Source: Deferribacterales bacterium (lineage in GTDB: Bacteria; Chrysiogenota; Deferribacteres; Deferribacterales; Geovibrionaceae). From it: 64,000 nt of DNA. The stretch spans positions 21,431 through 85,430 of the forward strand of contig JBFWLW010000009.1 in NCBI GenBank assembly GCA_050251945.1. Direction: 5' to 3'. Shown here in pieces: positions 5,206 to 36,463 of this stretch (position 1 is its first letter; each line of letters begins with the position of its first letter). The notes below the pieces were generated by a model. The model was not told the origin of the DNA. It ran no database searches and saw only the letters and a program-made list of their open reading frames with translations. Position numbers and translations under genes: made by a program.

Positions 5206-5387
5206 AGGCGGTATCACACGCCGCCTCCGGTTGTTGACAAACTAAATTTATACAGACTCACATTAGACTGCTTCGGGTTAAAACCCTCGCAGAGACGTTT
5301 TTTGTCTTCGCGAGGAGCGCATGCGACGACGCGATCTCGCATTTTCCTGACTTTGTCATCAGTCTGAGGCGGTATCACACGCCGCCT
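5206..5387. mobile_element. MITE copy 1 (5227-5366) flanked by an identical 21-bp duplication of a terminator hairpin (5206-5226, 5367-5387)
   Basis: AGGCGGTATCACACGCCGCCT on both sides; imperfect TIRs CCGGTTGTTGACAAACT / (revcomp) CAGACTGATGACAAAGT; near-identical to the reverse complement of 36289-36430. Confidence 0.88.
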
Positions 5388-6724
5388 TTTTTTATCAATT
5401 CAATCTTTCTTATATATCCGTCCACATCAAACTTTGAACGGCATCCGTTGCGGTTCATATATCTTATCTTGCCGTAAACCGGACGCTCCGCCCAAGCCCT
5501 GTCATGCACACCAGCAACACTCCATGCAACGCCGACACAGCCGTTCGGGTCGCGCCCGTCCAGAGCATAGGTATCGTTCAGAAGCAGAGCATATTTAAAA
5601 GCAGTCTCAGGACTTTCAGTCCATTCCAGTATCTTCTTCGCCCAGTACATCCGCATATATCCGTGCATCCTTCCCGTCATCTTCATCTGAATCTGCGCCG
5701 CATTCCAAAGGGAATCGTGCGTCTGCGCCGCCTCAAACACTTCATACGGGTAGACGTATTCCCGTCTGTCTGATCGGTGTTCGTCCAAAGTTTTCAAAGC
5801 CCACGGGTCAGCACCCTCTATGCTGTCGTATCTGTCGTTATACAGGCAGTAGTTATCAGAGAGTTCGCGGCGGACTATCAGCTCTTCAATGTAAGCATCC
5901 TTATCAGCATCCGGAGCGTCTGCCGCCAGAACGTCAAGCGCCGCCCGCTGGGGCGCTGCCTGTCCGAAATGGAAATAAGGTGACATCGTGGACTGAGCAT
6001 CTTCATTCGGGTCGTTTCTCTTTTCGTTGTAAAAACAAAGCCTGTCGTTAACAAAACATTGAAGAACTTCCTGCGCCGCTTTCGCACCTGAAACAATCGG
6101 AAAATGACCGCTGTATGGATAAAGCGCCTCAGCTCTTGTCCAGTCTGGTTCCTGCACAGCATCCGAAAAAACAGCCTTCTGCTTTTGCATCTTTGGAAAT
6201 TCCGTCAGAAACTCTCCCAAAACCCGATGTATCTTCGGTCTGATTGTTCTGGCGGCATACTCCTGTTTCGGCGATGTGAAACGGCACGGAACAACGTTGT
6301 GCGCATCCACTTCTATAACGGGGATGTCGAGCGCCGACGCCACATCCGCACGCCATGCCATAGGCACTTTTAAAGGCATAAAATCGCATATCAGTGTGTC
6401 TGCATTGTGGTATCTGACAAATTTAGGGATCTCTTCCTGCGGTCTGCCGATAAGCAAATAGAAAGGTATGTTCAGGGCTTCAAGCTCTTTCGCGGTCTCT
6501 TTCAGCCCGTTTATCATAAATCTGTAATGGAATGAATTGCCGTTGGGAAAATCGGGCGACAGACAAAAAGCCACTGCGAAAGCACTGCCCGCCGCCTCTG
6601 CCAGCTTTGCGGCATAAACAAGCGCCCAGTTATCTTTTGCGCGCTGGTCTCTGGACATCCAGTAAATAGTTCTGCCCGCCTGCGCCAGTCTGTCGTTAAG
6701 TGAAAAAGTACGCCTTATATCCAT
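5375..6724 (-). CDS. phr: Class II CPD deoxyribodipyrimidine photolyase
   Basis: 'YWMSRDQRAKDNWAL', 'EVDAHNVVP', 'EELIVRRELSDNY', 'MHGYMRMYWAKKILEW', 'DGRDPNG'; start moved to the ATG at 6724 to avoid overlap with argO. Confidence 0.93.
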   Translation of the reverse strand: MDIRRTFSLNDRLAQAGRTIYWMSRDQRAKDNWALVYAAKLAEAAGSAFAVAFCLSPDFPNGNSFHYRFMINGLKETAKELEALNIPFYLLIGRPQEEIPKFVRYHNADTLICDFMPLKVPMAWRADVASALDIPVIEVDAHNVVPCRFTSPKQEYAARTIRPKIHRVLGEFLTEFPKMQKQKAVFSDAVQEPDWTRAEALYPYSGHFPIVSGAKAAQEVLQCFVNDRLCFYNEKRNDPNEDAQSTMSPYFHFGQAAPQRAALDVLAADAPDADKDAYIEELIVRRELSDNYCLYNDRYDSIEGADPWALKTLDEHRSDRREYVYPYEVFEAAQTHDSLWNAAQIQMKMTGRMHGYMRMYWAKKILEWTESPETAFKYALLLNDTYALDGRDPNGCVGVAWSVAGVHDRAWAERPVYGKIRYMNRNGCRSKFDVDGYIRKIELIKKGGV

Positions 6725-6735
6725 AAGGCATTGTA

Positions 6736-7332
6736 CTATATTATGAGCGAAACCGCCACTCCCCACATTGTACAGCACACAAGCCCGTCCAGAATTCTCC
6801 AGACGACAGGTCTGGCGAACACTCTTGCCAGAGCGGAACCGAACAGCACAAGGGCGAAGAACCACACAACGGAAGCAGTTGACGCACCAAGTCCGAAAAC
6901 ATAGCGTCCGCTGCCGATGAATCCGGCGCTGATGCTCCCCACCAGAAGCACGGTGTCAAGGTAGACGTGGGGGTTAAGCACTGTCACGGCGAGAGTTGCA
7001 AGGAGAGTTTTTTTTATGCTGGAATCGGTATTTTCGTTCAGCTCCATTTTGCGGACGGAAAAAGCTGACCTTAAAGACAGAAAACCGTACCAGAAAAGAA
7101 ACGCCGCGCCGCCCCATGTGGCAATCTTCATCAGGGTCGGGTTTGATGCAACAAAAGTTCCCACACCTGCAACGCCTGTCATAATGAACAACACGTCGAA
7201 TATGGCACATACCAGAGCAACCTTAAAATGATGATTCCTCTTAACACTCTGGGTCAGAACAAACGCGTTCTGCGCTCCTATCGCAACTATCAGTCCGGCT
7301 CCTGTTGAAAATCCACTAACAAATGCAGTCAT
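6736..7332 (-). CDS. argO: LysE/ArgO family arginine/lysine exporter
   Basis: 'LIVAIGAQNAFVL', 'LNPHVYLDTV'; divergent from ArgP-type regulator; AGGAG upstream of ATG 7332. Confidence 0.88.
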   Translation of the reverse strand: MTAFVSGFSTGAGLIVAIGAQNAFVLTQSVKRNHHFKVALVCAIFDVLFIMTGVAGVGTFVASNPTLMKIATWGGAAFLFWYGFLSLRSAFSVRKMELNENTDSSIKKTLLATLAVTVLNPHVYLDTVLLVGSISAGFIGSGRYVFGLGASTASVVWFFALVLFGSALARVFARPVVWRILDGLVCCTMWGVAVSLII

Positions 7333-7402
7333 TTCACTCTCCTTTCGTAAGAGAACATATGACATGGCAGATCAAAAGTAAAATTAATTGTTTTCATAAT
7401 AC

Positions 7403-7417
7403 ATAAGTTTTGCTAAT
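7403..7417. promoter_or_regulatory. Putative LysR (ArgP/LysG) recognition site
   Basis: ATAAG-N5-CTAAT imperfect dyad with T-N11-A core between divergent argO and argP. Confidence 0.45.
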
Positions 7418-7425
7418 ATTAGCTT

Positions 7426-8307
7426 ATGTACGATTACAAACTTCTGGAAGCCTTCTGCGCTGTTGTTGAACATGGTGGATTTGAAAAGGCGGCGGAAAAA
7501 CTTTTTATAACACAGTCGGCAGTTTCCCAGCGGGTGCGCCAGCTTGAGGATGCGGCGAAATCCGTTCTTCTTGTGCGCTCCAGCCCGCCAATGCCCACGG
7601 ACACAGGCAAGGCGTTCATGGCGCATTTCAATAAAGTGCGTTCTCTTGAGGACGAGCTTGAAAAAGCGCTCAGCCACGACGAGGACTGCGGTTTTACAAG
7701 CATATGCATAGGTCTGAACGCGGACACCCTCGCCACATGGTTCTTTGATGCCATCGAAGAAACGGTGAAACGTGAAAGGATACTTTTAAAACTTCGGGTG
7801 GACGATCAGGAAGTCACCCATTCAATGCTGAAAAACGGCGAAGCGGCAGGCTGTATCAGCACCAGAAGCACGCCCATGCAGGGATGCAGCGTACATTACC
7901 TCGGCAAAACAACCTACAGAATGTACGTCTCCCCCGAAAAACATAAAGAGTGGTTCCCCGAAGGTTTCACAGAGAAAGCTTTGCAGAGCGTGCCTGTAAT
8001 CATATACAACGAACGGGACACACTGCATACCCAGATGTTCCGAAATGCGCTCGGCAAAGATAGTGTCGCCCATCCAGAACTTTTCATCCCGTCCGTCGAA
8101 AAATATCTGGATGCTGTCGTACGCGGGTTCGGTATCGGCATGATGCCCGATCAGCAGTGCAAAGCATATCTCGAACAGGGAATGATAGCCGATGCGGCGG
8201 CTCCTCACACGGTTGAGGCGCATCTTTACTGGCACAGATGGAACATAGATTCAAAGCCTCTGGATGCACTTACAAAAGCTCTGATTCGCTATTGTAAAGA
8301 TGCATAA
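7426..8307 (+). CDS. argP: LysR family regulator ArgP/LysG
   Basis: HTH 'FEKAAEKLFITQSAVSQRVRQLE', 'NADTLATWF', 'LYWHRW'. Confidence 0.9.
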   Translation: MYDYKLLEAFCAVVEHGGFEKAAEKLFITQSAVSQRVRQLEDAAKSVLLVRSSPPMPTDTGKAFMAHFNKVRSLEDELEKALSHDEDCGFTSICIGLNADTLATWFFDAIEETVKRERILLKLRVDDQEVTHSMLKNGEAAGCISTRSTPMQGCSVHYLGKTTYRMYVSPEKHKEWFPEGFTEKALQSVPVIIYNERDTLHTQMFRNALGKDSVAHPELFIPSVEKYLDAVVRGFGIGMMPDQQCKAYLEQGMIADAAAPHTVEAHLYWHRWNIDSKPLDALTKALIRYCKDA

Positions 8308-8349
8308 TGTGATATATTCTGAAAATTATTTGTTTGTTTGGAGGCATCT

Positions 8350-9372
8350 ATGAACGTTCATGACATAATCAGAAAAGTACGCGACAGAGAAGCGTTTACA
8401 CACACCGAAGTGGTTTCAATGCTTGAAACAGACCCCAAATCCAGAGAGGCACACCTGCTTATGGGTGAAGGCGCCGAAATCTCCCGCAAACTGACAGGCA
8501 ACACCGCCGAGGTACACGGACAGTTCGCACTTAATCTTGCACCCTGTCCCGTAAACTGCCGGTTCTGCGCGTTCGCCGCAAAATACGGCATTTTTAAAGA
8601 ACCCAAGGAACTCACAGTTCAGGAATCCATAGACTATGCAAAAGGCTTTGACAACGCACCCGAAAACGCCGCGGTATTCCTTATGACCACTGCGAATTAC
8701 GATTTCGGAAAATTCATAGAGATATCGCAGGAGATCAGAAAGATACTCCGTCCCGAAACACTTATGATAGCCAACGTAGGCGACATGTCGCCCGAACAGG
8801 CGGTTAAGATGAAAAATGCAGGGTTTAACGGCACATACCACGCAATCCGCATGGGCGAAGGTGAAAAAACCAACGCTCCGGTGAAACAAAGGTTGAAATC
8901 CATACGCGCGTTTCAGGATGCCGGACTCATCGTAGGAACCTGCGTGGAACCCATCGGACCTGAACACACAAACGACGAAATAGCTGAAAAGATACTCCTT
9001 GCGGCATCATTCGACCCCGCTTTCAGCGGTGCCATGCGCAGGATAACCATCCCCGGATCCGACCTTGAACAATACGGAATGATATCCGAACTGCGTCTGG
9101 CGCAAATTGTTGCGGTCACACGCATTGCCACCCCCATGAACGTTCTGGGCAACTGCACCCACGAGCCGAACGTTCTCGGTGCATCATCCGGTGCAAACCT
9201 TTTCTGGGCGGAGGTCGGCGCAAACCCGAGAGACACTAACGAAAAAACGGAAGACAACAGAGGGATGTCCGTTGCAGACTGCTCCAAACTCTTTACGGAG
9301 GCAGACTGGCAGGTTGGCAAACGTCCTTCAGCATACTATAATAAAAATCACAGCATTTTTGCAGAGGTATAA
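8350..9372 (+). CDS. Radical SAM protein, biotin-synthase-like family, function unknown
   Basis: CxxxCxxC 'CPVNCRFC', C-terminal 'GANLFWAE'; GGAGG RBS. Confidence 0.8.
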   Translation: MNVHDIIRKVRDREAFTHTEVVSMLETDPKSREAHLLMGEGAEISRKLTGNTAEVHGQFALNLAPCPVNCRFCAFAAKYGIFKEPKELTVQESIDYAKGFDNAPENAAVFLMTTANYDFGKFIEISQEIRKILRPETLMIANVGDMSPEQAVKMKNAGFNGTYHAIRMGEGEKTNAPVKQRLKSIRAFQDAGLIVGTCVEPIGPEHTNDEIAEKILLAASFDPAFSGAMRRITIPGSDLEQYGMISELRLAQIVAVTRIATPMNVLGNCTHEPNVLGASSGANLFWAEVGANPRDTNEKTEDNRGMSVADCSKLFTEADWQVGKRPSAYYNKNHSIFAEV

Positions 9373-9375
9373 AAC

Positions 9376-10002
9376 ATGCTCGACAGCACACAGATCATCC
9401 TTTTCTGTTCAACATCGCTCCTGCTTGCAATCACCCCGGGACCGGATATCATTTATGTCATAACCCGCGGCATAACACAGGGGCACAAAAGCGGCATGGC
9501 GGCGGCGGCTGGGTTTTCGCTCGGCAACATAGCACACACCACCTTTGCCATTGTGGGTCTGTCGGCGATAATCCGTTCCAGTGCGCTGGCGTTCACCGCC
9601 ATAAAGTTTGCAGGTGCCGTTTACCTTATCTACATCGGCTGGAAAACCTTCACCAGCAAGGGCGGCGCATCTGCGGAAAAAGACACTAAGATATTAAGCC
9701 CGAAGGCTGTTTTCGTACAGAGCATCACTGCAAATATCTTAAACCCGAAGGTGGCGCTGTTTTTCATAGCTTTCTTCCCGCAGTTCGTAAAGCCGCAGAA
9801 CGGACACCCCGCCATTCAGATGGCGCTTCTTGGGCTGCTGTTCATCATATGCACCTTCATAGTGTTTTCTGCCTGCGCTCTTTTCAGCGGACAGATAGGC
9901 GAAAAGCTCAAACACTCTAGAGGCGCGGGTTATCTCAACAAAGCGGCGGGTGCCGTACTGATGGGACTGGGCGTTGCGCTGGCTTTTTCAAAAAGATCAT
10001 AA
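9376..10002 (+). CDS. LysE/RhtB family amino-acid exporter
   Basis: 'ITPGPDIIYV', 'NILNPKVALFFIAFFPQF'. Confidence 0.9.
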   Translation: MLDSTQIILFCSTSLLLAITPGPDIIYVITRGITQGHKSGMAAAAGFSLGNIAHTTFAIVGLSAIIRSSALAFTAIKFAGAVYLIYIGWKTFTSKGGASAEKDTKILSPKAVFVQSITANILNPKVALFFIAFFPQFVKPQNGHPAIQMALLGLLFIICTFIVFSACALFSGQIGEKLKHSRGAGYLNKAAGAVLMGLGVALAFSKRS

Positions 10003-10010
10003 AAACTTGA

Positions 10011-10038
10011 TGTAATTTTTATTACAAAACTGTATAAT
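10011..10038 (+). promoter_or_regulatory. Putative operator palindrome and -10 box of azlC
   Basis: TGTAAT-TTTT-ATTACA (10011-10026); TATAAT at 10033-10038, 8 nt before the ATG. Confidence 0.45.
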
Positions 10039-10046
10039 CCTTTCCG

Positions 10047-10727
10047 ATGAATACGAATTATCAGGCATTCAAACTCGGAATCAAAGAGGGATTACCCGTC
10101 GCCGTGGGCGTTGCGGCATACGGCGTCGTATACGGCATGCTCACACAGGGTGTTCTGACCACATGGGAAACCGTCATGTCCTGCATGGTGGTCTTTGCCG
10201 GCGTATCGCAGATCATGGCGCTTGAAATGTGGAATTCCCCGCTGCCTGTTTTCGCAATCATCCTCTCAACCTTCATAGTGAATATCCGCCACATACTCAT
10301 GGGCGCATCAATATATCCATATGCCGAAAAAGAGAAAAAATGGGTGAGCTACATCAGTCTGTTCTTTATGGTGGACGAGGGCTGGGCGCTGACCATGGGC
10401 AAAATGGCACGCACTGCCGAACGCATAGGCTATCTTGCGGGAACGGGATTCATCCTCTATTTTCTCTGGCTTGCCTCCGCCATGCTAGGCAGACAGGCTG
10501 GCGCGTATATACCCTCTCCCGAAAAACTGGGGATAGACTTCGCTCTGTCGGCTGTGTTCATAACAATGGCAGTGTCGGGCTTCCGCGGCAGAAAGGACAT
10601 ACCTGTCATAGTGGTCGCCGTCATCGTTTCATGCCTCTTTGAGCATTATGTGGGCGGCAAATGGTACATACTGGCGGGCGGCATAGCAGGCGGAATAACA
10701 GCATGGATAAGCTATGGACAAGACTAG
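10047..10727 (+). CDS. azlC: AzlC family branched-chain amino acid exporter
   Basis: 'VFAGVSQ', 'VNIRHILMG', 'VDE', 'GIDFAL'. Confidence 0.88.
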   Translation: MNTNYQAFKLGIKEGLPVAVGVAAYGVVYGMLTQGVLTTWETVMSCMVVFAGVSQIMALEMWNSPLPVFAIILSTFIVNIRHILMGASIYPYAEKEKKWVSYISLFFMVDEGWALTMGKMARTAERIGYLAGTGFILYFLWLASAMLGRQAGAYIPSPEKLGIDFALSAVFITMAVSGFRGRKDIPVIVVAVIVSCLFEHYVGGKWYILAGGIAGGITAWISYGQD

Positions 10728-11010
10728 TTTTCTGACCATCCTCGGAATGGGGATAGCGACATACATCACGCGTGTTCTCGGGTTCTACATAGCGGGCAAA
10801 GTGAAGCTTACTCCAAGATTCCGCTACGCACTGCAGAGCATACCGATAGCAATTCTGGTCTCCATTATTGCTCCGACGATAATAAAAGGTACAATTGCTG
10901 AGATACTTTCGGCGATGGTGGTGGTCGGTACGGCGATTACGGGACGCGGACTTCTTTTCTGTCTCGCTGTGGGTATTCTCGCCATCAACTTCTTTCGATA
11001 TGTTTTTTAG
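10714..11010 (+). CDS. azlD: AzlD family exporter subunit
   Basis: Overlaps azlC end; 'ILGMGIATYITR', 'IPIAILVSIIAP'. Confidence 0.85.
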   Translation: MDKTSFLTILGMGIATYITRVLGFYIAGKVKLTPRFRYALQSIPIAILVSIIAPTIIKGTIAEILSAMVVVGTAITGRGLLFCLAVGILAINFFRYVF

Positions 11011-11033
11011 ATTATTTTCAAAACAGGAATCAT

Positions 11034-11144
11034 GTCTCTGCGAGGAACACCAGTCGAAGGCTGGGTAAAGTGACGAAGCAGTCTGAACCGTATATTTATG
11101 CCATGTATGGCAGATCGCGTCGTCCTTACAGTCCTCGCGAAGAC
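11034..11144. repeat. Free pair of REP-like palindromic units (11034-11084 and 11112-11144) without MITE ends
   Basis: GTCTCTGCGAGG...GACGAAGCAGTCT and AGATCGCGTCG...CCTCGCGAAGAC, the same arms as inside the MITEs; lies between convergent genes. Confidence 0.8.
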
Positions 11145-11165
11145 AGCACATATAGGCAAAATCTT

Positions 11166-11987
11166 TTAAAACGGCAGTGTTTCCAGCAGTTTTCCTATCT
11201 TTTCAACGGATTTTTTTACTTTCGCATCTGTCATAAGGTCGCGTTTATCTTTCAAAATCTCCGACAATTCCTTACCCAGAGTGTTGCGCAGACTTTTACC
11301 CGCCTCGGAAACTGATTGAGGCAGAGCGTTCTTTGCCGAAAGCAGACGCATGGTGTCAGCCACGGCAGTCATTTCCGGAATAAGCTTTTTTACAGCATCC
11401 ACAAAAAGCTCGTTCGCATTTACGAATTTGCGCACTGTTTCAGCCTTTTCAAGAGCCGACGCGTAGCGCTTTGCGAGCGAATCGAATTCTGTCAGCACAG
11501 CCTCTAGCTTTGCCACCTGCTCTTCTGACGCCTCTGACGTTTCAGCGTTCAGCTTTTCCGCCATGGCGTTCACAGAGCCGGCAAAGGACTTTGCAACTTC
11601 ATCAAAATTTCCGTCCTGCTCCATAGCGCCCATGAAGAGCGGATTCTCCGTAAGCACCTGATAAAGTTCCTGCTCGGCTTTTTTAAACTCAGCGTCGGTG
11701 AAGAACATGGCTGTTTTTGAGTAAATATTCGATATCCTCTTTCCGAAGCAGTCGCCTGTTTTCTCCGCCATATCGCACAGTTCTGCGCTTGCCGTGCCAA
11801 GTGTCATAAGCTCCGCGTATTTCTCACTGACAGCTTCTAGGTCTTTGTACTGCGCCTTGACCTCCTGCGCACAAGCCTTCATAGCAGAGATGAATTCCTG
11901 TTTTTCCCTCGCCGCCTCCATTGCCGCGGCATACTTTTCCGCAGTCTCATGGTGACGCTTCATAACTTCGGTAACATTCGCGCTCAT
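11166..11987 (-). CDS. Hypothetical helical protein with two ~108-aa internal repeats
   Basis: 273-aa ORF, GGAGG RBS; halves align without gaps (YAAAMEAA/YASALEKA; GKRISNI/GKELSEI; TDAEFKK/TDAKVKK). Confidence 0.75.
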   Translation of the reverse strand: MSANVTEVMKRHHETAEKYAAAMEAAREKQEFISAMKACAQEVKAQYKDLEAVSEKYAELMTLGTASAELCDMAEKTGDCFGKRISNIYSKTAMFFTDAEFKKAEQELYQVLTENPLFMGAMEQDGNFDEVAKSFAGSVNAMAEKLNAETSEASEEQVAKLEAVLTEFDSLAKRYASALEKAETVRKFVNANELFVDAVKKLIPEMTAVADTMRLLSAKNALPQSVSEAGKSLRNTLGKELSEILKDKRDLMTDAKVKKSVEKIGKLLETLPF

Positions 11988-12047
11988 AACGCACCTCCGC
12001 TGTTTCAGAAAAAAGATGATAACGTGTTATGCTTTATACTGCAAGGG

Positions 12048-12884
12048 TTAATGAATCATAACGCTGTCGCCTATCAGAAGCAGGAAGAACAGAACAGCCG
12101 ACAGGTTCAGGGAATTGAATCGAAACATAGGTTTTTTTGCATAGCCGAAGATAAAAAAGATGGCAGGTATCACAGCGGCAATATTGAGCGCGGCGGCAAA
12201 TCTGGTGTTGTACACTTCCGAAAAAGAGATGAAAAGAAGTGCCGTAAGGTACCCGACAGCCCAGACCAGAACAAAAAGCCTGCTCTTGTCCGCTCCGTAT
12301 GAAAACGTCAGTGTCTTAAATCCTGCGCGCCTGTAGTCGTCAGCATAAATATCAGCCAGCACGGCAAAATGAGGCGTCTGCCAGAGGTAAAGCACAGCTG
12401 TCACAAGCAGTATCTCTCTGTCAAACGGATTTCCGCCCGCCATGCAGTAACCAAGCATGGGCGGCATAGCGCCTGTCAGCGCACCCAGCATAACGGAAAA
12501 AGGCGATACCCTTTTAAATGGCGTATAGATAAAATTATAGCCTATAACAACCGCCAGACTGATTACCAGCGCGGCGGCGCTTCCGCTTAAAACGACAAAG
12601 CAGAACCCAATAAGTATCAGCACAACGGCAAGCATCAGCGCCTCTTTGGGCATTATGAAGCCGCTGGGAAGCGGGCGTTTCATGGTGCGCGTCATCATCC
12701 CGTCCATCTCCCGCTCCTGATACTGGTTCAGTGCCGAACAGCCGAACGAAAGAAAACATGCCGCACATACCGCAAGAAGATGTGCCATGCCGATATGGTG
12801 AAAAGAAAGGCAGGCCCCCGCAAAAGCGGAAAGGCCTACCATTGATGATAATCTTACTCTTACAAGATGCTTTATGCTTCGCAT
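12048..12884 (-). CDS. ctaB: Protoheme IX farnesyltransferase (haem O synthase)
   Basis: 'ALNQYQEREMDGMMTRTMKRPLPSG', 'WQTPHF', 'DDYRRAG'. Confidence 0.92.
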   Translation of the reverse strand: MRSIKHLVRVRLSSMVGLSAFAGACLSFHHIGMAHLLAVCAACFLSFGCSALNQYQEREMDGMMTRTMKRPLPSGFIMPKEALMLAVVLILIGFCFVVLSGSAAALVISLAVVIGYNFIYTPFKRVSPFSVMLGALTGAMPPMLGYCMAGGNPFDREILLVTAVLYLWQTPHFAVLADIYADDYRRAGFKTLTFSYGADKSRLFVLVWAVGYLTALLFISFSEVYNTRFAAALNIAAVIPAIFFIFGYAKKPMFRFNSLNLSAVLFFLLLIGDSVMIH

Positions 12885-14102
12885 CTATTTCAGCGTGCTG
12901 ATGTACTCTATCAGCGCTTTGATATCGTCGTCGCTGAGGTTTTCGTATTCGGGCATTGAAGGCTCGAAACCGTCAACGATATATTCCGACGGATGTTTGA
13001 TGGAGCTTATTATATACTCCACGTTTGCCGTGACCTCCATCTTTTTGCCGTCTTTCTGTACAGTTGTCTTTCTGTCCATCAGACCTTTAAAGCTTGGTCC
13101 GACCATCTCGCTTCCGTCAACAGAGTGGCATCCGGTACAGCCTTCGCGTTCGGCAACCTCTGCGCCATTTGCTCCCAGCTTAACCGCCGGTTTGCCGCCG
13201 CCCTTGAAGTATTCAAGCATTTTGGCAAGTTCCTCTTTGGTCACGCTGTCTTTGAACGGAGGCATCATGTCTTCATAGCCTTTTACGATATCCGCGCCGG
13301 GCTCAATTATGGACTTTTCGAGATAAGCGTCATCGGCTTTAACTGTCTTCTCTTTGCCGTTTTCGATAACAACCGTATCGCGTCCGTATATGTCTTTAAA
13401 GCTGGGTCCCACAAGCTCTGTTCCGTCTGTTGTGTGGCAGTCGAAGCAGCCGTGTTTCTTCATCGCCTCTTCGCCTTCGTTCGGCGCTTCCGCAGCGGAT
13501 GAAGAGGCGTTCAGCCATTTCTCAAACTCATCTTTAGGCACGACAACGACTTTTGAAAGCATGTAAGAGTGACGCACGCCGCAGTATTCGGCACACTGTA
13601 TCTCATATTCTGCCGGTTCGCCGCTGTTAAACCATACATACGTGTGCATGCCGGGAACCGTATCCATCTTCACGCGAAACGCTGCCACATAAAAGCTGTG
13701 GATAACGTCTACCGACGTCAGGTCAACCTTTACGGGCGTGTCCGCAGGCACATACAGCTTGTCGCTTGTCTTTCCGTTAGGATACTCAAACTTCCATGAC
13801 CACATGCGGGCTGTGCACTTCACTTCATAACTGTCGGCGGGCGCTTCACGAAGAGCCTTGTAGCCTACCCAGCCGTACCAGAACATTGCGCCGACTATTA
13901 TGCACGGCACGATGGTCCAGATAAGTTCCGCAACTAAATTGCCCTCTATCTGCGAAGGTTCAGGATTCCTTTTTCTGCTGTACCTGTAAAGGAAATACAG
14001 CGTCACCGCCGTTATCAGAAACAGGATGACAAAGGATACCCCGAATATAAATTTAAATGCCGTGTCAACTTTGCTTACGGCATCAACCAGTGTCGTATCC
14101 AT
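12885..14102 (-). CDS. coxB: Cytochrome c oxidase subunit II with two fused c-type haem domains
   Basis: CuA ligands 'DVIHSF...CAEYCGVRHSYM'; CxxCH motifs CFDCH and CTGCH. Confidence 0.95.
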   Translation of the reverse strand: MDTTLVDAVSKVDTAFKFIFGVSFVILFLITAVTLYFLYRYSRKRNPEPSQIEGNLVAELIWTIVPCIIVGAMFWYGWVGYKALREAPADSYEVKCTARMWSWKFEYPNGKTSDKLYVPADTPVKVDLTSVDVIHSFYVAAFRVKMDTVPGMHTYVWFNSGEPAEYEIQCAEYCGVRHSYMLSKVVVVPKDEFEKWLNASSSAAEAPNEGEEAMKKHGCFDCHTTDGTELVGPSFKDIYGRDTVVIENGKEKTVKADDAYLEKSIIEPGADIVKGYEDMMPPFKDSVTKEELAKMLEYFKGGGKPAVKLGANGAEVAEREGCTGCHSVDGSEMVGPSFKGLMDRKTTVQKDGKKMEVTANVEYIISSIKHPSEYIVDGFEPSMPEYENLSDDDIKALIEYISTLK

Positions 14103-14103
14103 C

Positions 14104-14403
14104 TCAGCCTCCCCTGTATGCCAGATCGAAGAACGTCATGCCTATAAAGATGGCAAGAAGCAGGAAACACAGGAAAACTATCATCTGCATAAACCTGCTC
14201 TCATACTTCATGTGCATGAAGAACAATATGACCAGCAGAGCCTTTGTAACAGCCAGCGTAAGCGCCGCCGCAACGTTTAAAAAGCCAAGGTCGATGCGCG
14301 ACACAGCAACTGTTGTCGCCGTCAGCAGAAGCAGCAGAACAAGGATTATTCCCGATGTCTTTATGCTGAGTATATGATGTTGATGTTCATGATTTTCGCT
14401 CAT
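14104..14403 (-). CDS. coxD: Cytochrome c oxidase subunit IV
   Basis: 3 TM, 'KALLVILFFMHMKYE'. Confidence 0.88.
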   Translation of the reverse strand: MSENHEHQHHILSIKTSGIILVLLLLLTATTVAVSRIDLGFLNVAAALTLAVTKALLVILFFMHMKYESRFMQMIVFLCFLLLAIFIGMTFFDLAYRGG

Positions 14404-14411
14404 AACAGACC

Positions 14412-17557: not shown

Positions 17558-17561
17558 AGGC

Positions 17562-17861: not shown

Positions 17862-17900
17862 GGTTATTTACCTCGCTAACAAAAATAGGAGACGTATTTT

Positions 17901-17929: not shown

Positions 17930-17947
17930 ATAAACATTGTAAAGAAA

Positions 17948-21047: not shown

Positions 21048-21051
21048 TATA

Positions 21052-24040: not shown

Positions 24041-24144
24041 TGCTTTTGTTATAATTTTGTGATTTCTTGCTTTTCTGGTCAGTTTTTTATAGACTGCTGC
24101 ACATTATTTGTATTATAAGTACAGATTCTTTTACTCGGTGGATA

Positions 24145-27872: not shown

Positions 27873-27878
27873 TTAAAC

Positions 27879-27909
27879 AAAGCGGAGGCAAAAACCTCCG
27901 CTTTTTTTT
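27879..27909 (+). terminator. Rho-independent terminator of potABCD
   Basis: AAAGCGGAGG-CAAAAA-CCTCCGCTTT followed by a T run. Confidence 0.85.
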
Positions 27910-28006
27910 CTACCCTTTTGGGTAGGTGACAAATTTTTTACACCGCTTCTGTTGAGATTATGTCCATTTTAGTGGATAATTCATCATCTCTTCATTACGG
28001 TGTTAT

Positions 28007-31000
28007 ATGCGTTATTTTAAACTGATTGCTATCTTTTTCCTTACTGCTCTTCTTGCATCGTGCGGCGGCGGAACAACCTCGTCAAAGACCAGAACAAGCT
28101 TGGAGATCAAGCTTCAACTGCCGAGCGATACGAAAAAACGCACAAAAAGTTCGCCAAGGTTCACCATTGGCAACACAAGCATATCAAAAGTTCAGATAGG
28201 ATATGGACTTACAGGCGAAAGCATGACCGCTCTGGACGTCACCACAGAGGCTGAAAACCAGTCGTCCGTCACTATTTCCCAGCTTGAGGCAGGAAAAGAG
28301 TACAGCTTCACCGTGGCGGCATACAGCGGCACGGATACCCTCGTCTGTCAGGGCGGCGACACACTGACCATAGTAGCCAACACAGAATCGGATTTAACAC
28401 TCACATGCAGTTTTCAGGATAAATACGCCCTTGAGAATTTCGTTTTCGGCATAGAAACCGGAATGATAAACGAAACCATAACGGAATCCGACATGGAAGA
28501 CTACGTGGCTGACAGCGCAGATTTCGGCGTTTACAACGGCATGGACAGGGACAGTTTCATATCCGATTTCATCGCAAAACGGGTTGAGATGAAAGATAAC
28601 GGTTTGAGTCTCATCTCCGTGCAGATGCTTGATCCAAGATCGAAAAAAACGGCGGAAGACACATCCACTGCAAAGGTCAAATATATATACAGTGACGGTT
28701 CGTACAGGTTTCAAGAACTTTGGGCGGCAAAAATAGACGATGAATGGAAGCTGGTGGGCAACGGACACAGCTATGACCTTTCGGTGCAGAATCAGGCGGC
28801 ACAGCTTTTCAGCACTGCCAGCCAGACAGAGCCTGATAAGGTTGCCGGAATAACAGTCGGTTCGGGAACAACGGCACGGGACAACATAGCATCGTTCACC
28901 CTGTCGGGAGACGGCATAAGCAGCACCAACTACTCAATAGTCACGGATTCCGACCCGATATATGCAAAACTTACCTCTCCCTCGTCCTCTTACTATTTCA
29001 AAGAGATAAACGAGAACATGACAATGTACGGCAGTGCATCAGCCGTTAATGACGGCGACCCGTACGTTTTCGCGATAACAACCGTCAACAGCGAATCTGA
29101 AACCGACACGCAGTATATTGATGGAGAAGGCATAACGGCTGCTGAAATGGAACAGGATGTTTTCCCCGCGGCAACCGTTACAGTGGATAACTACTGTACA
29201 AAAACCGTAAACCTTACAATGCCGACGGCATACACACCCAGCTGGGTTCAAATAGATATTTTAGTTTTAAACAGTTCTTCAACGGCAATAACAAGCTCTG
29301 TGAAAGTTCCTCTTAACGGGACAACAGCATCAGTCGATATGTCCGATGCACTCGGCAGCACGCCGCAATATTCTGAATTCAAGTTAACGGCGTATGACTC
29401 CGCGGGAAGAGCTTTTTCAACATATTACTCCTTTGAAAATCTCGGCATATCCGTTGACAGCGGATGTACATCTGGTGGAGGCTCAGGCGGCAGCGGCGGC
29501 GACATTGTTGTTGACGGGTATTACAATCTGGCAAGCCTCTCTGTTGATGGAATGAATTATTCAGTAAAATTCAACGGAATAAGGGTTAATTCAGATAATT
29601 CCTTCTACGGGATGCTCAGCAGTGAACTGTTCACCAGCGACTATATGGAAAGCAGCTATTTTGAACCGATAGTAGCCAATTTCAACAGCGACGGCACAGC
29701 CGCAAGCGCTTATTCAGTTCAGCATACGAATGCAAACTCAGAAAACACCATGTTCAGAGTGAAAGTGTTTAAAACATCCGACGGCTCACAGTTCATCGTT
29801 TCCGGCAACAACGACAATAACGACCGTTTCGTCAGTGTTATGAAGATAAATGCCGCCGGCAACGATATCGACTGGATAAAAAAATATCAAAGTAGCGACA
29901 CAGGCAATAACGAATATCACAAGTTCATCGACGCGTCGGTGATATCGGATTCAGTTGACGACACCGACAGCACGGAAGAGATTCTGCTGCTTATCAAAGG
30001 TCAGAACGCGGATGAGCAATTCAACTCGACCGTCATGATACTCAAAGTATCTTCAGAGGACGGAAGCATTCTCAACAGCAGTATAACAACCGTAACAAAC
30101 TCCAGCGGCGGTATAGTTCCGATAAAAATGGCGGTAATTAAACCTTACGATACAGTTGCCGTTCTGGCGTATACATGTGCAGACGACGGCACGACTCATT
30201 CGTCCATGTCGCTTCTTGCTTTGGATTCAGAGCTTACACTGCAGAATGCAAAAGAACTTTATGAAGGTTTCGACACTGTCATGTATTCCATCAGCGACAA
30301 TATGGCGGATGAAACATTGCTTAATAATATTGATATGGCGGCAGGCATCAACGGCAAAATATACATCACATTTACCGAAGATTATCTCAACGTATACATT
30401 GCTGAGATATCCACCGACCTTGATGAATACGGTTCCGCCTATGACATACAATCTATCTCGTTTATAAAGATGGACAACGGATACGCCGGTTATTATAATT
30501 ACATCCCAAGGATAGCTGTCGTGACGTCTCCTTCCGAAACGGAAAATCTTATATACTATTATTCCATGACTATAGGGTCAACAAGCGGAGATATAGTTAT
30601 AATGGTTTATTTGCCGATACTTGCGCAGCTGACAGAAGCAGCTTTCGACGGCTCAAGTCTCGCAAACGGCATCGGGTATAACTGGGCGATAGAAATTCCA
30701 AATATGCAGATGCCAGGCGGACAGCTCACAGGCGGTGCGGCATCGTCCGTTTTCCTGACAAATACGAGCAGTTTTGTCAGTGTGAATGTTGACGGAGAAT
30801 CCGGAGACAATCCTATAGACAGCGCAACCAACACGTTGTCATTCTCAAGTTATTCCATGGGAGACCCGTTGAACAACCTGACTACAATAGGATTTGATAA
30901 CGCAGGGATAAACGACATGAATGTTGAGGATATAGACGTAAGTTCCTTCAGCTTAACCCAAAGAGAACTTTCTATTATGGATCTGGCCGACATGCCCTGA
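28007..31000 (+). CDS. Large acidic surface lipoprotein of unknown function (paralog A)
   Basis: Lipobox LASC; FN3-like strand 'LEAGKEYSFTVAAY'; Ser/Thr/Asp-rich; propeller-like C-terminal half; homologous to 36479-39316. Confidence 0.8.
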   Translation: MRYFKLIAIFFLTALLASCGGGTTSSKTRTSLEIKLQLPSDTKKRTKSSPRFTIGNTSISKVQIGYGLTGESMTALDVTTEAENQSSVTISQLEAGKEYSFTVAAYSGTDTLVCQGGDTLTIVANTESDLTLTCSFQDKYALENFVFGIETGMINETITESDMEDYVADSADFGVYNGMDRDSFISDFIAKRVEMKDNGLSLISVQMLDPRSKKTAEDTSTAKVKYIYSDGSYRFQELWAAKIDDEWKLVGNGHSYDLSVQNQAAQLFSTASQTEPDKVAGITVGSGTTARDNIASFTLSGDGISSTNYSIVTDSDPIYAKLTSPSSSYYFKEINENMTMYGSASAVNDGDPYVFAITTVNSESETDTQYIDGEGITAAEMEQDVFPAATVTVDNYCTKTVNLTMPTAYTPSWVQIDILVLNSSSTAITSSVKVPLNGTTASVDMSDALGSTPQYSEFKLTAYDSAGRAFSTYYSFENLGISVDSGCTSGGGSGGSGGDIVVDGYYNLASLSVDGMNYSVKFNGIRVNSDNSFYGMLSSELFTSDYMESSYFEPIVANFNSDGTAASAYSVQHTNANSENTMFRVKVFKTSDGSQFIVSGNNDNNDRFVSVMKINAAGNDIDWIKKYQSSDTGNNEYHKFIDASVISDSVDDTDSTEEILLLIKGQNADEQFNSTVMILKVSSEDGSILNSSITTVTNSSGGIVPIKMAVIKPYDTVAVLAYTCADDGTTHSSMSLLALDSELTLQNAKELYEGFDTVMYSISDNMADETLLNNIDMAAGINGKIYITFTEDYLNVYIAEISTDLDEYGSAYDIQSISFIKMDNGYAGYYNYIPRIAVVTSPSETENLIYYYSMTIGSTSGDIVIMVYLPILAQLTEAAFDGSSLANGIGYNWAIEIPNMQMPGGQLTGGAASSVFLTNTSSFVSVNVDGESGDNPIDSATNTLSFSSYSMGDPLNNLTTIGFDNAGINDMNVEDIDVSSFSLTQRELSIMDLADMP

Positions 31001-31027
31001 CCGGCAGAACCCTATTTAAAACAAAAA

Positions 31028-31218
31028 AGGCGGAGAGCATGAACTCGCCGCCTTAGACTAATGACAAAGTCTTATAAAGACGGGATTGCTTCGCTCAGCT
31101 CGCAAAGACGGAAAGAAAAAACGTCTCTGCGAGGAGCTTAGCGACGAAGCAGTCTCATTGTTTTTTGCTAAGCTTAGTTTGTTAACAAACTGAGGCGGAG
31201 AGCATGAACTCACCGCCT
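31028..31218. mobile_element. MITE copy 2 (31054-31192) flanked by a 26-bp duplication of a terminator hairpin (31028-31053, 31193-31218; 1 mismatch)
   Basis: AGGCGGAGAGCATGAACTC(G/A)CCGCCT on both sides; ends TAGACTAATGACAAAGT...AGTTTGTTAACAAACTG; two internal REP-like units. Confidence 0.85.
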
Positions 31219-31240
31219 ATTATTTTTTCACAAAAGATTT

Positions 31241-32920
31241 CTATCCGTTGCTCTGCGCTTTCGCCCAGCTGTCTTTAAGACCGACAGTCTTGTTAAAGAC
31301 AGGTTTTCCGGGTTTTGAATCCTTGTCGCTTGCGAAATAACCGACGCGCAGGAACTGATACTTCTGCATCGGTTCAACGTCTTTAAGCGACGGTTCCGCA
31401 AGACATGTGGCAACTTTCAGCGAATCGGGGTTGATGTTAGCTGTAAAGTCCATGCCCTCCGGCGCTTTGTCGGGGTTCGGAGTGTTGAAAAGGTGTTCGT
31501 ACATGCGTACTTCCGCCTCAACGCAGTGTCTGGCGCTTACCCAGTGGGCAGTTCCCTTGACCTTGCGTCCATCCTCCGTCCAGCCGCCGCGGCTTGCGGG
31601 GTCATATGTACAGCGAAGCTCAAGGATATTGCCGTCGGCATCCTTAACGACCTCTTCGCATTTGATATAATAAGCGTGTTTAAGCCTCATCTCCTGCCCG
31701 GGAGAAAGTCTGAAATACTTTTTCGGCGGGTTTTCCATAAAGTCATCCCGCTCAATGTATACCTCGCGGCAGAAAGGCACCTGTCTTGAACCGTCCGCTT
31801 CGTTTTCAGGGTTGTTCTCCGCCTCAAACCATTCCTCTTTGTCCTCAGGATAATTGGTTATCACAACCTTAAGCGGGTCTGTTACAACCATAACTCTTTG
31901 GGCTGTCTTGTTTAGGTCTTCGCGCAGGCAGTATTCAAGCTGACCGTAATCGACAGTGCTGTTGCTTTTGGCAACGCCTATCATTTCGGCAAAGTTCCTG
32001 ATGGATTCGGGAGTAAAACCTCTGCGGCGAAGTCCGGCTATTGTGGGCATACGCGGGTCGTCCCAGCCGTTCACAAAATTTTTCTGAACCAGCGTAAGGA
32101 GTTTCCTTTTGCTCATAACGGTGTATGTGAGATTAAGCCTCGCGAACTCTATCTGTTGTGGATGAAAAACGCCCAGTTCGTCAAGGAACCAGTCGTAAAG
32201 GGGTCTGTGGTCTTCAAATTCCAGAGTACAGATAGAGTGTGTTATCTTTTCAAGTGAGTCTTCAAGCCCGTGCGCAAAGTCGTACATGGGATATATGCAC
32301 CATTTGTCGCCTGTGCGGTGGTGGTGCGCATGTGCGATGCGGTAGATAACGGGGTCGCGCATATTCATGTTGGGAGACGCCATATCTATCTTTGCGCGAA
32401 GGACTTTTTCACCGTCGCCGAACTCGCCCTTTCTCATGCGCTCAAACAGATCAAGATTTTCCTCAACGCTCCTGCCTCTGTAGGGGCTTTCCACGCCCGC
32501 CTCTTTCAGATTACCGCGTGTCTTGCGCATCTCTTCGGCGTTCAATTCGCAGACGTACGCCTTACCCTTTTTGATAAGGTTAACGGCGCACTCGTAGAAA
32601 AATTCAAAATAGTCGGAGGCATAGAACTCTCTGTCCTCCCAGTCAAATCCAAGCCAGCGCACGTCTTCGCGGATGGAATCGACATATTCCACATCCTCTT
32701 TAACGGGGTTGGTGTCGTCATAGCGCAGGTTGCACTTGCCGCCGAACTCTCTTGCCAGCCCGAAGTTGATGCAGATGGACTTTGCGTGCCCTATGTGCAG
32801 ATATCCGTTGGGCTCCGGCGGGAAACGCGTATGCACACGGTTTTCGTTCTTGCCCTCTTCCAGATCCTTACGGATTATTGTCTTTATAAAATTGGACGGT
32901 TTAGATACTTCTTCTTCCAT
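31241..32920 (-). CDS. glnS: Glutamine--tRNA ligase
   Basis: '[18 protein letters not shown]', 'MSKRKL', '[10 protein letters not shown]'. Confidence 0.96.
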
Positions 32921-32931
32921 GTATCAATCCT

Positions 32932-34398
32932 TTATACGTTTTTTTCTATCCATGCAGACGCCGCAGCAACTCTGCGTTTAACACAGTCCGACCCAAGAAG
33001 TTCCAGCATATCGAACAGATCCGGACCGCCGCCAACGCCTGTAACGGCGAGCCTTACAGCGGAATTTATCTTTCCGGCGGACATACCCAGTTCGTCTGCT
33101 ATGCCGTGAAAAAGCTCTTCCAGAGCCGCTCTGTTCCATTCGGCAACGCTGTCCGCCTTTTCAACAATCTTATCAAAAGCAGGTTTAACAGCCGCAGTGA
33201 ACTGTTTGCCCGCCTGTTTCGCGTCGTAATCTTCGGGGTCTTTGAAGAAATAACCGCCGTTTTCACCGAATTCTGTCACTTTTTTACAGCGGGTTTTGAA
33301 CAGCGATACGACGCGCTCTTTATACTCTGTGCTGAAATCTGCAACGGGAAGACTTTTCTCCGCCCACATGGGTTCTATATCCGCCAGCAGTTTGGAGGAA
33401 TCGTAATGCTCCATATACTGACCGTTCATCCACTCAAGCTTCTGCTCGTCGAAAACAGAGGGTTTTGCGGATATGCGGTGCATATCGAAAGCTTCCGTAA
33501 TCTCTTCGACGGGCATTATCTCCCTGTCGTCGCCGGGGTTCCAGCCCAGCAATGAAAGGAAGTTCAGAAGCGCTTCCGGAAGAAAACCGGCGCGCTTGTA
33601 ATCCATTACCGATGCGGCGCCCTTGCGTTTGGAGAGCTTTCCGCCGTCTGGTGAAAGGATAACGGGCAGATGCGCTATAACCGGCGGCTGCCATCCGAAC
33701 GCTTTATAAAGCAGGACGTGGCGTGGCGTGCTGGCAATCCATTCGTCACCGCGCAGAACATGCGATATCTCCATCAGGTGATCGTCCACAACGCTTGCAA
33801 GGTGATACGTCGGGTAGCCGTCCGTTTTCATAAGCACGGTGTCGTCAACCATTGTGACCGGGGTCTCTATCTCTCCGCGGATACCGTCTATGAACGAGAT
33901 ACTGCCTTCCAGAGGCGCTTTCAGCCTGAGAACGTAGGGTTCTCCCGCCTCAATGCGTTTCATCGCCTCGTCTTTTGAGATATCGCGGCACCTTCTGTCA
34001 TATCCGCCGTGTATTTCTTTGCGCAGTTCTTTCTCTTTGCGCATCTTTTCCAGACGCTCCGGCGTGCAGAAACAGGGATAAACCTGCCCTCTGTCCCAGA
34101 GTATCTGAGCATATTTCTTATATATGTCAAGCCTTTCAGACTGGATGTACGGACCGTGGTCTCCGCCCTTTTCAGGACCCTCCGTCCACTCTATCCCCAT
34201 CCATCTGAGGCTTTCAAATATCTCTTTAAGAGAATCTTCCTGAAAACGTGTTCTGTCCGTATCCTCGATACGAAGAATAAACGTTCCGCCTGTTTTCTTA
34301 GCAAACAGGTAATTGAAAAGGGCTGTTCTTGCGCCGCCGACGTGCAAATAGCCTGTGGGCGAGGGAGCAAAGCGCACCCTGATACGATTTTCGCTCAT
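32932..34398 (-). CDS. gltX: Glutamate--tRNA ligase
   Basis: 'RVRFAPSPTGYLHVGGARTAL', 'LRIEDTD', 'KLSKR'. Confidence 0.96.
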   Translation of the reverse strand: MSENRIRVRFAPSPTGYLHVGGARTALFNYLFAKKTGGTFILRIEDTDRTRFQEDSLKEIFESLRWMGIEWTEGPEKGGDHGPYIQSERLDIYKKYAQILWDRGQVYPCFCTPERLEKMRKEKELRKEIHGGYDRRCRDISKDEAMKRIEAGEPYVLRLKAPLEGSISFIDGIRGEIETPVTMVDDTVLMKTDGYPTYHLASVVDDHLMEISHVLRGDEWIASTPRHVLLYKAFGWQPPVIAHLPVILSPDGGKLSKRKGAASVMDYKRAGFLPEALLNFLSLLGWNPGDDREIMPVEEITEAFDMHRISAKPSVFDEQKLEWMNGQYMEHYDSSKLLADIEPMWAEKSLPVADFSTEYKERVVSLFKTRCKKVTEFGENGGYFFKDPEDYDAKQAGKQFTAAVKPAFDKIVEKADSVAEWNRAALEELFHGIADELGMSAGKINSAVRLAVTGVGGGPDLFDMLELLGSDCVKRRVAAASAWIEKNV

Positions 34399-34538
34399 TT
34401 TGACTCCTGAAAAAGAAAAAACTAATTCACAATACCGATTAACCTGTTATACTAACGTATTCCCAGTTTATTTTCAACATCGGAAGCACCATATTATTTT
34501 TATCTGCGGGACAGGATTTTTTGTACGTTGGAGAACAA

Positions 34539-35891
34539 ATGGATCATAAACTTGATTCAGACCCTTTTGATATATATGTCACAGCATCATTTGACATAGC
34601 CTACGCCCTTTCAAGGGCGCTCGACCTTGTCAATCCCATGATAAATAACCACCATCAGCGTGTTGCATTCATAGCGGGAAGCATCGCATCCGAAGCTGGT
34701 CTTCCTGTGAAAGATATAGAAAACATAGTCCTTGCATCCCTGATACACGACATAGGCGTAGTTATGGAGAACGAATTCCTTGAGCTGGCAGATACCAGCG
34801 ACAAAAAAGGCGATTCGGAATTCTGCCACGCAATTGTCGGTTCCCACCTGCTCACCAGCCTTAAACTTTTTCCTGAACTTCCGGCACTTGTGAAATACCA
34901 CCACTCACCATACGGGGGCGAAATAAACCATCTCGCAGAGACCTGCGACGAGGTTATCCCCGAAGGCGCAATGGTGATACATCTGGCAGACCGCATAGAC
35001 GTTCTTCTGAACCGCTCGGAGCCGTCGCTCGACCAGAAAAACGGCATAATTGAAAACGTGAACCGTTTCGGCGGTACAAAATTCAATCCGGATCATCTCG
35101 CGGCATTTAACAGGCTGGCAGAGAGAGAATCCTTCTGGTTCGACATAGAAGAACAGGAAAAATATAAGCTTCTGAAATACAAATTCCGCTTTTCCCACAT
35201 AAACATGGATATCGACAGCATACTGGAGACCGCGAAACTTTTAAGCCGCATAATAGATTTCCGCTGTGTGTTTACTGCAAACCACTCCGCTGGAGTTGCC
35301 GCTGTGGCAAAGCTCATAACTGAAAAACTCGGATTTCCGGAACGCGACTGCAAATCCATGATGATCGCAGGATATCTGCACGACATAGGCAAGCTCGCCA
35401 TCCCGTCGTCCATCCTTTACAAGCAAAGTGCTCTTAATGAAGACGAAATACTGATTCTGCGCAAGCACCCGTATTACACCTATTCAATACTGAACACCTT
35501 CCAGATATTTGACAAAATAAAAAACTGGGCGGCTTTTCACCACGAATGTCTCGACGGAAGCGGATATCCGTTCCATCTGACAGACGACAAGCTCGATCTG
35601 GGATGCAGAATACTTGGACTGGCTGACATTGTCACGGCGCTCACAGAGGAACGCCCATACAGGTCTTCCATGCCGAAAGACAAGGTGGCACAGATAATAC
35701 AGGAAATGGTTCAGAACGGAAAAATGGACAGGCAGGTCGCCTCAACAGTGCTTGATAATTTTGAAGAGATAAACGATGCCAGACAATTAAGTCAGGCAGA
35801 TGAAATGAAAACGTTTGAACTTTTCAAAGATGCGATAATGAATAATAAAATATGTAAAAAGAACATTAGGTTCATCACGGCACTGCAGTGA
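34539..35891 (+). CDS. Tandem HD / HD-GYP phosphohydrolase (putative cyclic dinucleotide phosphodiesterase)
   Basis: Two 'HDIG' motifs; second domain has 'HHECLDGSGYP' and 'RPYR'. Confidence 0.88.
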   Translation: MDHKLDSDPFDIYVTASFDIAYALSRALDLVNPMINNHHQRVAFIAGSIASEAGLPVKDIENIVLASLIHDIGVVMENEFLELADTSDKKGDSEFCHAIVGSHLLTSLKLFPELPALVKYHHSPYGGEINHLAETCDEVIPEGAMVIHLADRIDVLLNRSEPSLDQKNGIIENVNRFGGTKFNPDHLAAFNRLAERESFWFDIEEQEKYKLLKYKFRFSHINMDIDSILETAKLLSRIIDFRCVFTANHSAGVAAVAKLITEKLGFPERDCKSMMIAGYLHDIGKLAIPSSILYKQSALNEDEILILRKHPYYTYSILNTFQIFDKIKNWAAFHHECLDGSGYPFHLTDDKLDLGCRILGLADIVTALTEERPYRSSMPKDKVAQIIQEMVQNGKMDRQVASTVLDNFEEINDARQLSQADEMKTFELFKDAIMNNKICKKNIRFITALQ

Positions 35892-35912
35892 TGAACCGTG
35901 ATATTCCTTTCG

Positions 35913-36122
35913 TCAGGCGGTTTTGTCGTCGAAGAAATGGAGCATTGACGTCTGCTTCTCTTCCTGTGCCACCTGTTTGGGGATCACTTTCTTTTTGGAT
36001 TCTTTTTTGATTTCAAAGTAGCATTTGTAAATTGCGCCGCAGTTGTCGCAACGTACCGCACCGGCCTGTTTAACGGTTATCTTTGTGCCGCAGTCTTTAC
36101 ATTCAAAGGACTTTTTAGCCAT
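35913..36122 (-). CDS. Small zinc-ribbon protein, function unknown
   Basis: CKDC...CDNC pairs, Lys-rich tail; GGAG upstream of ATG 36122. Confidence 0.6.
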   Translation of the reverse strand: MAKKSFECKDCGTKITVKQAGAVRCDNCGAIYKCYFEIKKESKKKVIPKQVAQEEKQTSMLHFFDDKTA

Positions 36123-36255
36123 CTTCTCAACTCCGCATTGATCAGAATACATGGTTTTTGACGATATTCGTCACTTGATATCGCACAATATCACATCCGT
36201 TCCAAAATTAATGTCAAATTAATGCAATATTTGTTAAACCTGTTAAACAATAGAG

Positions 36256-36463
36256 AAATGGGACATATACAAAACATATGTCCCATCAGAGACTGATGAC
36301 AAAGTTAGTAAAATGCGAGATCGCTTCGTCGCATGCGCTCCTCGCGAAGACAAAAAAACGTCTCTGCGATGGGTTTTAACCCGAAGCAGTCTAATGTGAG
36401 TCCGTGTAAATTTAGTTTGTCAATAACCTGAAATGGGACATATGCAAAACATATGCCCCATCA
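36256..36463. mobile_element. MITE copy 3 (36289-36430) flanked by a 33-bp hairpin duplication (36256-36288, 36431-36463; 2 mismatches)
   Basis: AAATGGGACATAT(A/G)CAAAACATATG(T/C)CCCATCA on both sides; ends GAGACTGATGACAAAGT...AGTTTGTCAATAACCTG. Confidence 0.88.

Follow-up and report, generated by a model that had tools for sequence, protein, structure and literature searches.

A gene-less element family with IS1182-type ends carries REP-like palindrome pairs and lies mostly within duplicated terminator-like hairpins in a Deferribacterales bacterium

Introduction

Some insertion sequences (ISs) of the IS1182 family duplicate an entire stem-loop. [quoted passage not shown] The analysis started from a 64,000-nucleotide stretch of DNA (the window; GenBank assembly GCA_050251945.1, contig JBFWLW010000009.1), in which three full copies of about 140 bp lie, and extended to the genome that holds it (G000) and to the related genomes G001, G002, G004, G005 and G006.

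The family resembles ISBspe1-like IS1182 elements, which have CAG(G/A)(C/T)TG-type ends and make whole-hairpin duplications of 19-28 bp. Unlike them, the MITE has no transposase and its interior is unrelated to the IS, and its targets are GC-rich with an AGG...CCT pattern, whereas three IS cases from Bacillus have AT-rich stems. IS1272 and TnSha1 of staphylococci are members of the IS1182 family that target hairpins and terminators and hit a single target repeatedly (PMC5678879, PMC4923244). In the available excerpts of these two papers, IS1272 deletes the hairpin without duplicating it and no primary-sequence consensus is given, whereas the MITE duplicates the hairpin and the feet of its targets are biased towards AGG...CCT. 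The same excerpts mention entire stem-loop duplication by some IS1182 members at second hand, and PMC5678879 draws it as pathway b of a cruciform model. Hairpin targeting by IS1182 elements is known in outline, and in the literature found, partly as excerpts, it appears as a remark or a drawn model.

Other small elements share single features with this one. MITEPye1 of Paracoccus yeei is likewise an intergenic MITE (159 bp) with IS1182-type ends; it differs in its 4-bp duplications and its 1-3 copies, and the excerpt mentions no cargo of repetitive extragenic palindromes (REPs) (PMC11578231). YPAL/RU-2 of Yersinia, a MITE of ~168 bp, is similar in making variable duplications (3-26 bp) at sites of dyad symmetry and in being co-transcribed with upstream genes; it differs in that the excerpt lists no terminal inverted repeats and names no partner transposase (PMC2229807). 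The cargo of the present MITE resembles CGTC REP dimers and Ssn-related motifs (SRMs), which in the excerpts are (C/T)GTC-tagged palindromes, mostly dimers, flanking ~95-aa GIY-YIG genes (PMC3733652, PMC11893778). In the literature searched, main texts only, neither REP doublets set between IS1182 ends nor repeats linked to DUF559 were described. IS1182 ends with exchangeable REP cargo add modestly to a known class of mechanism, as do the two cargo classes, the consensus at the feet and the repeated use of terminators; no new principle is involved.

Results

A gene-less family is flanked by duplicated hairpins

We observed at least 86 two-ended copies in G000, 107-238 bp long and falling into 18 clusters. 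The census paired end motifs, which gave 89 candidates, three of which were removed as overlapping or composite pairings. The ends are imperfect, measure 15-17 nt and consist of one left-type and one right-type end in 81/86 copies; 34 additional ends also adjoin MITE cargo. Only two of the copies lie in short open reading frames (ORFs), which barely span the element. The copies show no orientation bias (18 versus 17), and contigs from four DNA sequencing runs yielded no usable polymorphism.

Flanking direct repeats were present in 70/86 copies, 69 of them 16-33 bp long and 42 of these 20-22 bp. The controls gave 0/300 for random position pairs and 2/400 for shuffled flank pairings, which excludes a chance origin. 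A hairpin stood on both sides of 47/86 copies, compared with 3/1000 at random. Repeat lengths matched those of 400 free terminator-like hairpins of G000 (Kolmogorov-Smirnov p=0.23), 30 of which turned out to adjoin an end motif. An earlier note on the window, made from the letters alone, had proposed that whole hairpins of variable length are duplicated and that terminators are the targets, and both proposals were supported. In the genome 43/86 copies lie between convergent ORFs, as opposed to 184/1117 intergenic gaps (simple ORF calls), and an A- or T-tract is retained in 62/69 duplicated targets.

The three full copies in the window, all of them between convergent ORFs, have the positions, lengths, end motifs and repeats that the note had given them. 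It had overlooked a fourth, one-ended copy and the REP doublets of the interior. The features are as follows.

5206..5226, no strand: left target duplicate of copy 1, a 21-bp hairpin; G002, G004 and G005 have one hairpin at the orthologous site
5227..5366, + strand: MITE copy 1, 140 bp, left-type end at 5227 and right-type end at 5366; member of the largest subfamily (23 copies)
5265..5297, - strand: CGTC-type REP-like unit 1 within copy 1; 85% match over 33 nt to the repeat lying upstream of a short G005 GIY-YIG gene
5304..5338, + strand: CGTC-type REP-like unit 2 within copy 1, back to back with unit 1
5367..5387, no strand: right target duplicate of copy 1; T-tract retained; contains the stop codon of the ORF at 5375-6865 (-)
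31028..31053, no strand: left target duplicate of copy 2, 26 bp; single hairpin in G002, G004 and G006
31054..31192, - strand: MITE copy 2, 139 bp; subfamily other than that of copies 1 and 3
31193..31218, no strand: right target duplicate of copy 2
36256..36288, no strand: left target duplicate of copy 3, at 33 bp the longest seen; G002, G005 and G006 have one hairpin here
36289..36430, - strand: MITE copy 3, 142 bp; belongs with copy 1 in one subfamily
36431..36463, no strand: right target duplicate of copy 3
53490..53594, + strand: fourth copy, one-ended, a REP doublet and a right-type end with neither hairpin nor duplication

Copies 2 and 3 have one orientation and copy 1 the opposite one; identity to copy 1 is 94% for copy 3 and 69% for copy 2.

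Orthologous sites carry a single hairpin

All three window sites are single hairpins in G002. Within the 1.35 Mb of G002 used for the comparison, both flanks could be mapped for 38/86 copies: 35 sites lack the element, two hold a different subfamily and one holds a free REP doublet. A scripted count had given 34 empty and four occupied sites, and one of the four was judged false by eye. None of the 35 empty sites shows two hairpins, as the insertion account in the note implied; in two cases, which form a tandem pair, no hairpin is visible in the stretch that was extracted. Repeat pairs are identical in 21/56 cases. The same terminators are reused between species, by different subfamilies or by the IS itself, and the copy-2 hairpin of G005 is occupied by a MITE with a different interior. 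Two ends, 17-22 bp repeats and a species-specific cargo belonging to either class characterise 13/20 loci from other species, across two genera.

Several loci record later changes. Tandem copies with a third hairpin copy between them (G000 C6:50982-51281 and C2:45095-45415) are second insertions into an already duplicated target. At C3:14542, C3:49724 and C5:47878 of G000 the two duplicates are reverse-complementary in the loop; at the last of these the G002 allele equals the left copy, so that one duplicate was inverted. Differences between duplicates that break the stem number 25 in the element-proximal arm and 11 in the distal arm (p=0.03, uncorrected); long-range pairing, or conversion by other copies, may account for this bias. 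In copy 3 each duplicate has one different stem mismatch, as first read. The perfect 12-bp ancestral stem reconstructed from them was not borne out: at both positions the G002 hairpin equals the right copy and the G006 hairpin the left.

A 7.2-kb operon between two copies at C2:30491-38002, absent from G002, was considered as a composite transposon and ruled out as carried. It is present at 71-81% in G001, G004 and G005, and is therefore ancestral and was lost from G002. This operon (G000:C2:30300-38200) resembles one for 2-aminoethylphosphonate uptake and breakdown. Its loss in G002 falls between related hairpins.

Target stem feet show a sequence bias

The internal sequences of the targets are mutually unrelated, and a T adjoins the MITE end at 104/138 junctions. 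The G+C core begins with GG in 88/138 target arms, compared with 246/800 background arms (p 3e-13). Because AGG...CCT stem feet are enriched, targeting is not by structure only; the proposal that hairpin structure rather than sequence is recognised overstates the case. A cut at the base of the stem had also been proposed. The edge lies 1-2 A/T bases outside the G+C core, and the palindrome continues past the repeat in 33/69 modelled targets, so the duplication ends at the core plus these bases and not at the limit of the full palindrome. Approximately 60 free AGG...CCT hairpins remain in G000.

Matching IS1182 elements occur in sister species

The note had seen no transposase in the window, and no IS1182 transposase was found in the whole G000 assembly by PF13751, PF05598, NF033551 or tblastn. 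Such a transposase is present in G002 and G004, interrupted at contig ends. Both IS fragments tested from these genomes match NF033551, below the whole-protein cut-off that a full-length relative in G023 exceeds (485 bits), and the fragments are 51-58% identical to ISBspe1. The left end of the G004 IS equals the MITE left end at 16/16 nt, and the commoner right end in G002 equals the MITE right end at 15/15 nt. With these matches, both the link to IS1182 and the non-autonomous nature of the element, as first suggested, were supported.

In seven left/right contig-end pairs of G002 and in one of G004, the two members of the pair share a 20-bp hairpin (read by eye). Of nine IS sites in the sister species, seven are occupied by a MITE in G000; this co-occupancy is improbable by chance if 20-30% of targets are filled (p 0.0003-0.004), but no longer so if 50% are (p 0.09). 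Full-length relatives from the Bacillus group duplicate whole hairpins of 19, 20 and 28 bp in 3/3 cases (NC_013792.1, NZ_CP032858.1, NZ_MH594122.1). Together with the IS of G002 and G004, these cases identify whole-hairpin duplication as a trait of the ISBspe1-like branch of IS1182, which makes the behaviour of the MITE less surprising than the note had rated it. In G002 and G004 the IS has a hairpin immediately inside each end; the MITE lacks such a hairpin there.

The interior is a REP doublet of two unrelated classes

Only the terminal 15-16 nt align between the MITE and the five IS end fragments available (the IS middle is unassembled). No similarity extends beyond them, and derivation of the interior from the IS by deletion was not seen in this comparison. 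Instead, 76/86 copies are laid out as spacer, palindrome, short linker, palindrome and spacer, with CGTC-type doublets. G000 contains 530 GTC-tagged palindrome cores, compared with 12-28 expected, and 187 back-to-back doublets, 65 of which lie within two-ended copies and 96 without an end nearby. Free doublets also form tandem arrays without IS ends at G000 C10:67167-67817 and C10:776-1050 (91-bp and 87-bp periods).

CGTC cores accompany short nuclease genes. In relatives, a core lies within 200 nt of 9/11 short GIY-YIG genes (96-107 aa), as opposed to 1/16 UvrC loci, and the REP units of window copy 2 match, at 89% and 87% over 38 nt, those flanking the G006 GIY-YIG gene. Short GIY-YIG genes are absent from G000. 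Another hairpin class, unrelated to the first, is present in eight copies, two of which are hybrids, and hairpins of this class flank 7/7 short DUF559 genes, including that of G000. After the DUF559 gene, at G000 C4:8141-8645, stand a doublet of class 2, then a right-type end and a hairpin; the left end is reduced to a 9-nt remnant. A nuclease gene enclosed by both ends was sought and found at none of 11 GIY-YIG and 7 DUF559 loci; the G000 DUF559 gene only precedes a half copy.

We further observed that MITE halves recombine, interiors flip and REP loops hold nested inserts. The module nested in the REP loops of MITEs contains, in its CTAG, a multicopy IS located at G000 contig ends (C1:1-110, C11:1-125, C17:46620-46735), which by its end features is putatively IS630-like. 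The site of window copy 4 is a free REP doublet in G002 with no IS end whatsoever, which suggests that free doublets have been exchanged with enclosed ones. No cargo-free end pairs of 25-89 bp were found in G000, nor any in 63 genomes of the order, a search that had no positive control. A GTDB-wide search for the same architecture with one exact pattern gave 26 stretches; the 25 listed were mostly coding coincidences, and none of these had two ends and a hairpin repeat. In one distant genome (L175), two CGTC cores lie between possible IS1182-like ends, again without a hairpin repeat.

Gene context of the window copies

Copy 1 lies between an MCP gene and a photolyase-domain gene, copy 2 between a large fn3-like gene and a Glu/Gln-tRNA synthetase gene, and copy 3 between an HD-domain gene and a 968-aa ORF without annotation. 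The photolyase-domain ORF has its stop codon (5375-5377) within the loop region of the right duplicate of copy 1, and the gene end has therefore stayed intact after duplication. The transcript of copy 1 has a predicted fold with z -5.0, in which the distal arms pair across the element. In G001, the copy-1 terminator (G001:C8:68000-68800) holds a different element of ~115 bp that is also flanked by duplicated hairpins and lacks the MITE ends. Rfam matches at gathering score in the window numbered 0.

Discussion

We conclude that this is very probably a gene-less family whose ends match those, left and right, of an IS1182 of the ISBspe1-like type, whose interior is a REP-like palindrome pair, and which that IS's transposase would move. 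The ends, the copy number, the hairpin duplications, the empty sites, the partner IS in sister species and the non-IS interior are there in the genomes compared; that the IS1182 transposase mobilises the element in trans is likely from these sequence features. The transposase would bind one left and one right end. Its point of attack on an extruded terminator cruciform would be the 5' foot of the hairpin on each strand, in the manner of pathway b in PMC5678879, with a preference for AGG...CCT feet. The stagger would then equal the length of the hairpin, and repair would copy the hairpin whole. As each outer duplicate keeps its own U-tract (an A- or T-tract in the DNA), transcription would still terminate in either direction, with the element becoming part of the 3' untranslated region. 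The end pair may have taken up its REP cargo on more than one occasion, or recombination with free doublets may have swapped it; if so, about one third of the CGTC-type doublets in G000 would have spread as passengers.

A number of observations weigh against this account. The transposase is absent from the G000 assembly, a draft that breaks at repeats, and mobilisation in the G000 lineage was not observed. In G002 and G004 the IS exists only as contig-end fragments that were paired by their shared hairpins, with the catalytic middle unassembled, and the cruciform step is a model only. Sixteen of the 86 copies have no scorable repeat, most of them being visibly decayed or nested. The copy at C5:76234 adjoins a hairpin foot without duplication when compared with G002, a metagenome IS (L208) is flanked by two different hairpins, and excision may have produced some of the empty sites. 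Old duplicates seem to have been resolved in this way at L217, where one duplicate of a G005 copy matches the G000 allele and the other the G002 allele. The degenerate pattern published for SRMs matched 0/86 copies; the version used had one extra N per gap, a check by hand failed too, and the repeats beside GIY-YIG genes likewise did not fit. The capture route is unobserved, since no cargo-free end pair was found.

What drives the element could be read differently. If a REP-associated nuclease (short GIY-YIG or DUF559) moved a REPIN-like unit with the IS-like ends as passengers, this would fit an interior that is a REP doublet, free doublets that are as common as enclosed ones, and the DUF559 gene retained in G000. 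We consider it highly improbable, because the hairpin duplications adjoin the IS ends and not the REP units, an IS without REP cargo makes the same duplications, the same flanks occur with two unrelated REP classes and G000 lacks a short GIY-YIG gene. Somewhat less remote, though still distinctly unlikely, is an ordinary internal-deletion derivative of an extinct, hairpin-containing IS1182, whose subfamilies would descend from one ancestor with no repeated capture. Several left spacers do seem related, right halves are common to subfamilies, and the IS sampled here may not be the true parent. Against this stand the lack of IS similarity past 15-16 nt in five end fragments, the presence within the same ends of two cargo classes unrelated to each other, of a hybrid and of flipped interiors, and window copy 4, which has taken the place of part of a free doublet resident there.

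The identity of the element as a REP doublet between IS1182 ends would be unaffected by a third alternative, which alters its history: the shared occupied sites could be old, vertically inherited insertions whose cargo was converted and whose copies were lost by recombination between the long repeats, instead of independent hits on hot terminators. In its favour, the two duplicates at L217 match alleles of different species, and clean excision via the 20-bp repeats is possible. At most shared sites, by contrast, both duplicates equal the host's own hairpin allele while the subfamily, the orientation or even the element (a full IS) differs, and the two repeats are identical in 21/56 pairs. We therefore hold vertical inheritance to be a minority prospect, and the likeliest of the three alternatives.

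The work matters in the first place for the target rule of this IS1182 branch: a hairpin of any terminator size, with an AGG...CCT foot and an edge 1-2 bases beyond the G+C core. G000 supplies ~70 natural targets, which together with their empty counterparts and the partner IS suffice to define that rule and make a direct test of cruciform attack possible. For neutral sites, a useful tool would be a transposase whose insertion at terminators spares both of them. The MITE cargo also bears on the spread of CGTC-type REP dimers. IS1182 end pairs might even be a general shuttle for GIY-YIG- and DUF559-linked REP doublets, loaded or swapped, and delivered by a DDE transposase to a limited set of reused terminators read by shape and AGG/CCT foot, a generalisation for which we see the balance as level. 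If true, the shuttle would be a second route of spread for CGTC REP dimers, which are said to lack a dedicated transposase, and it would couple three selfish systems.

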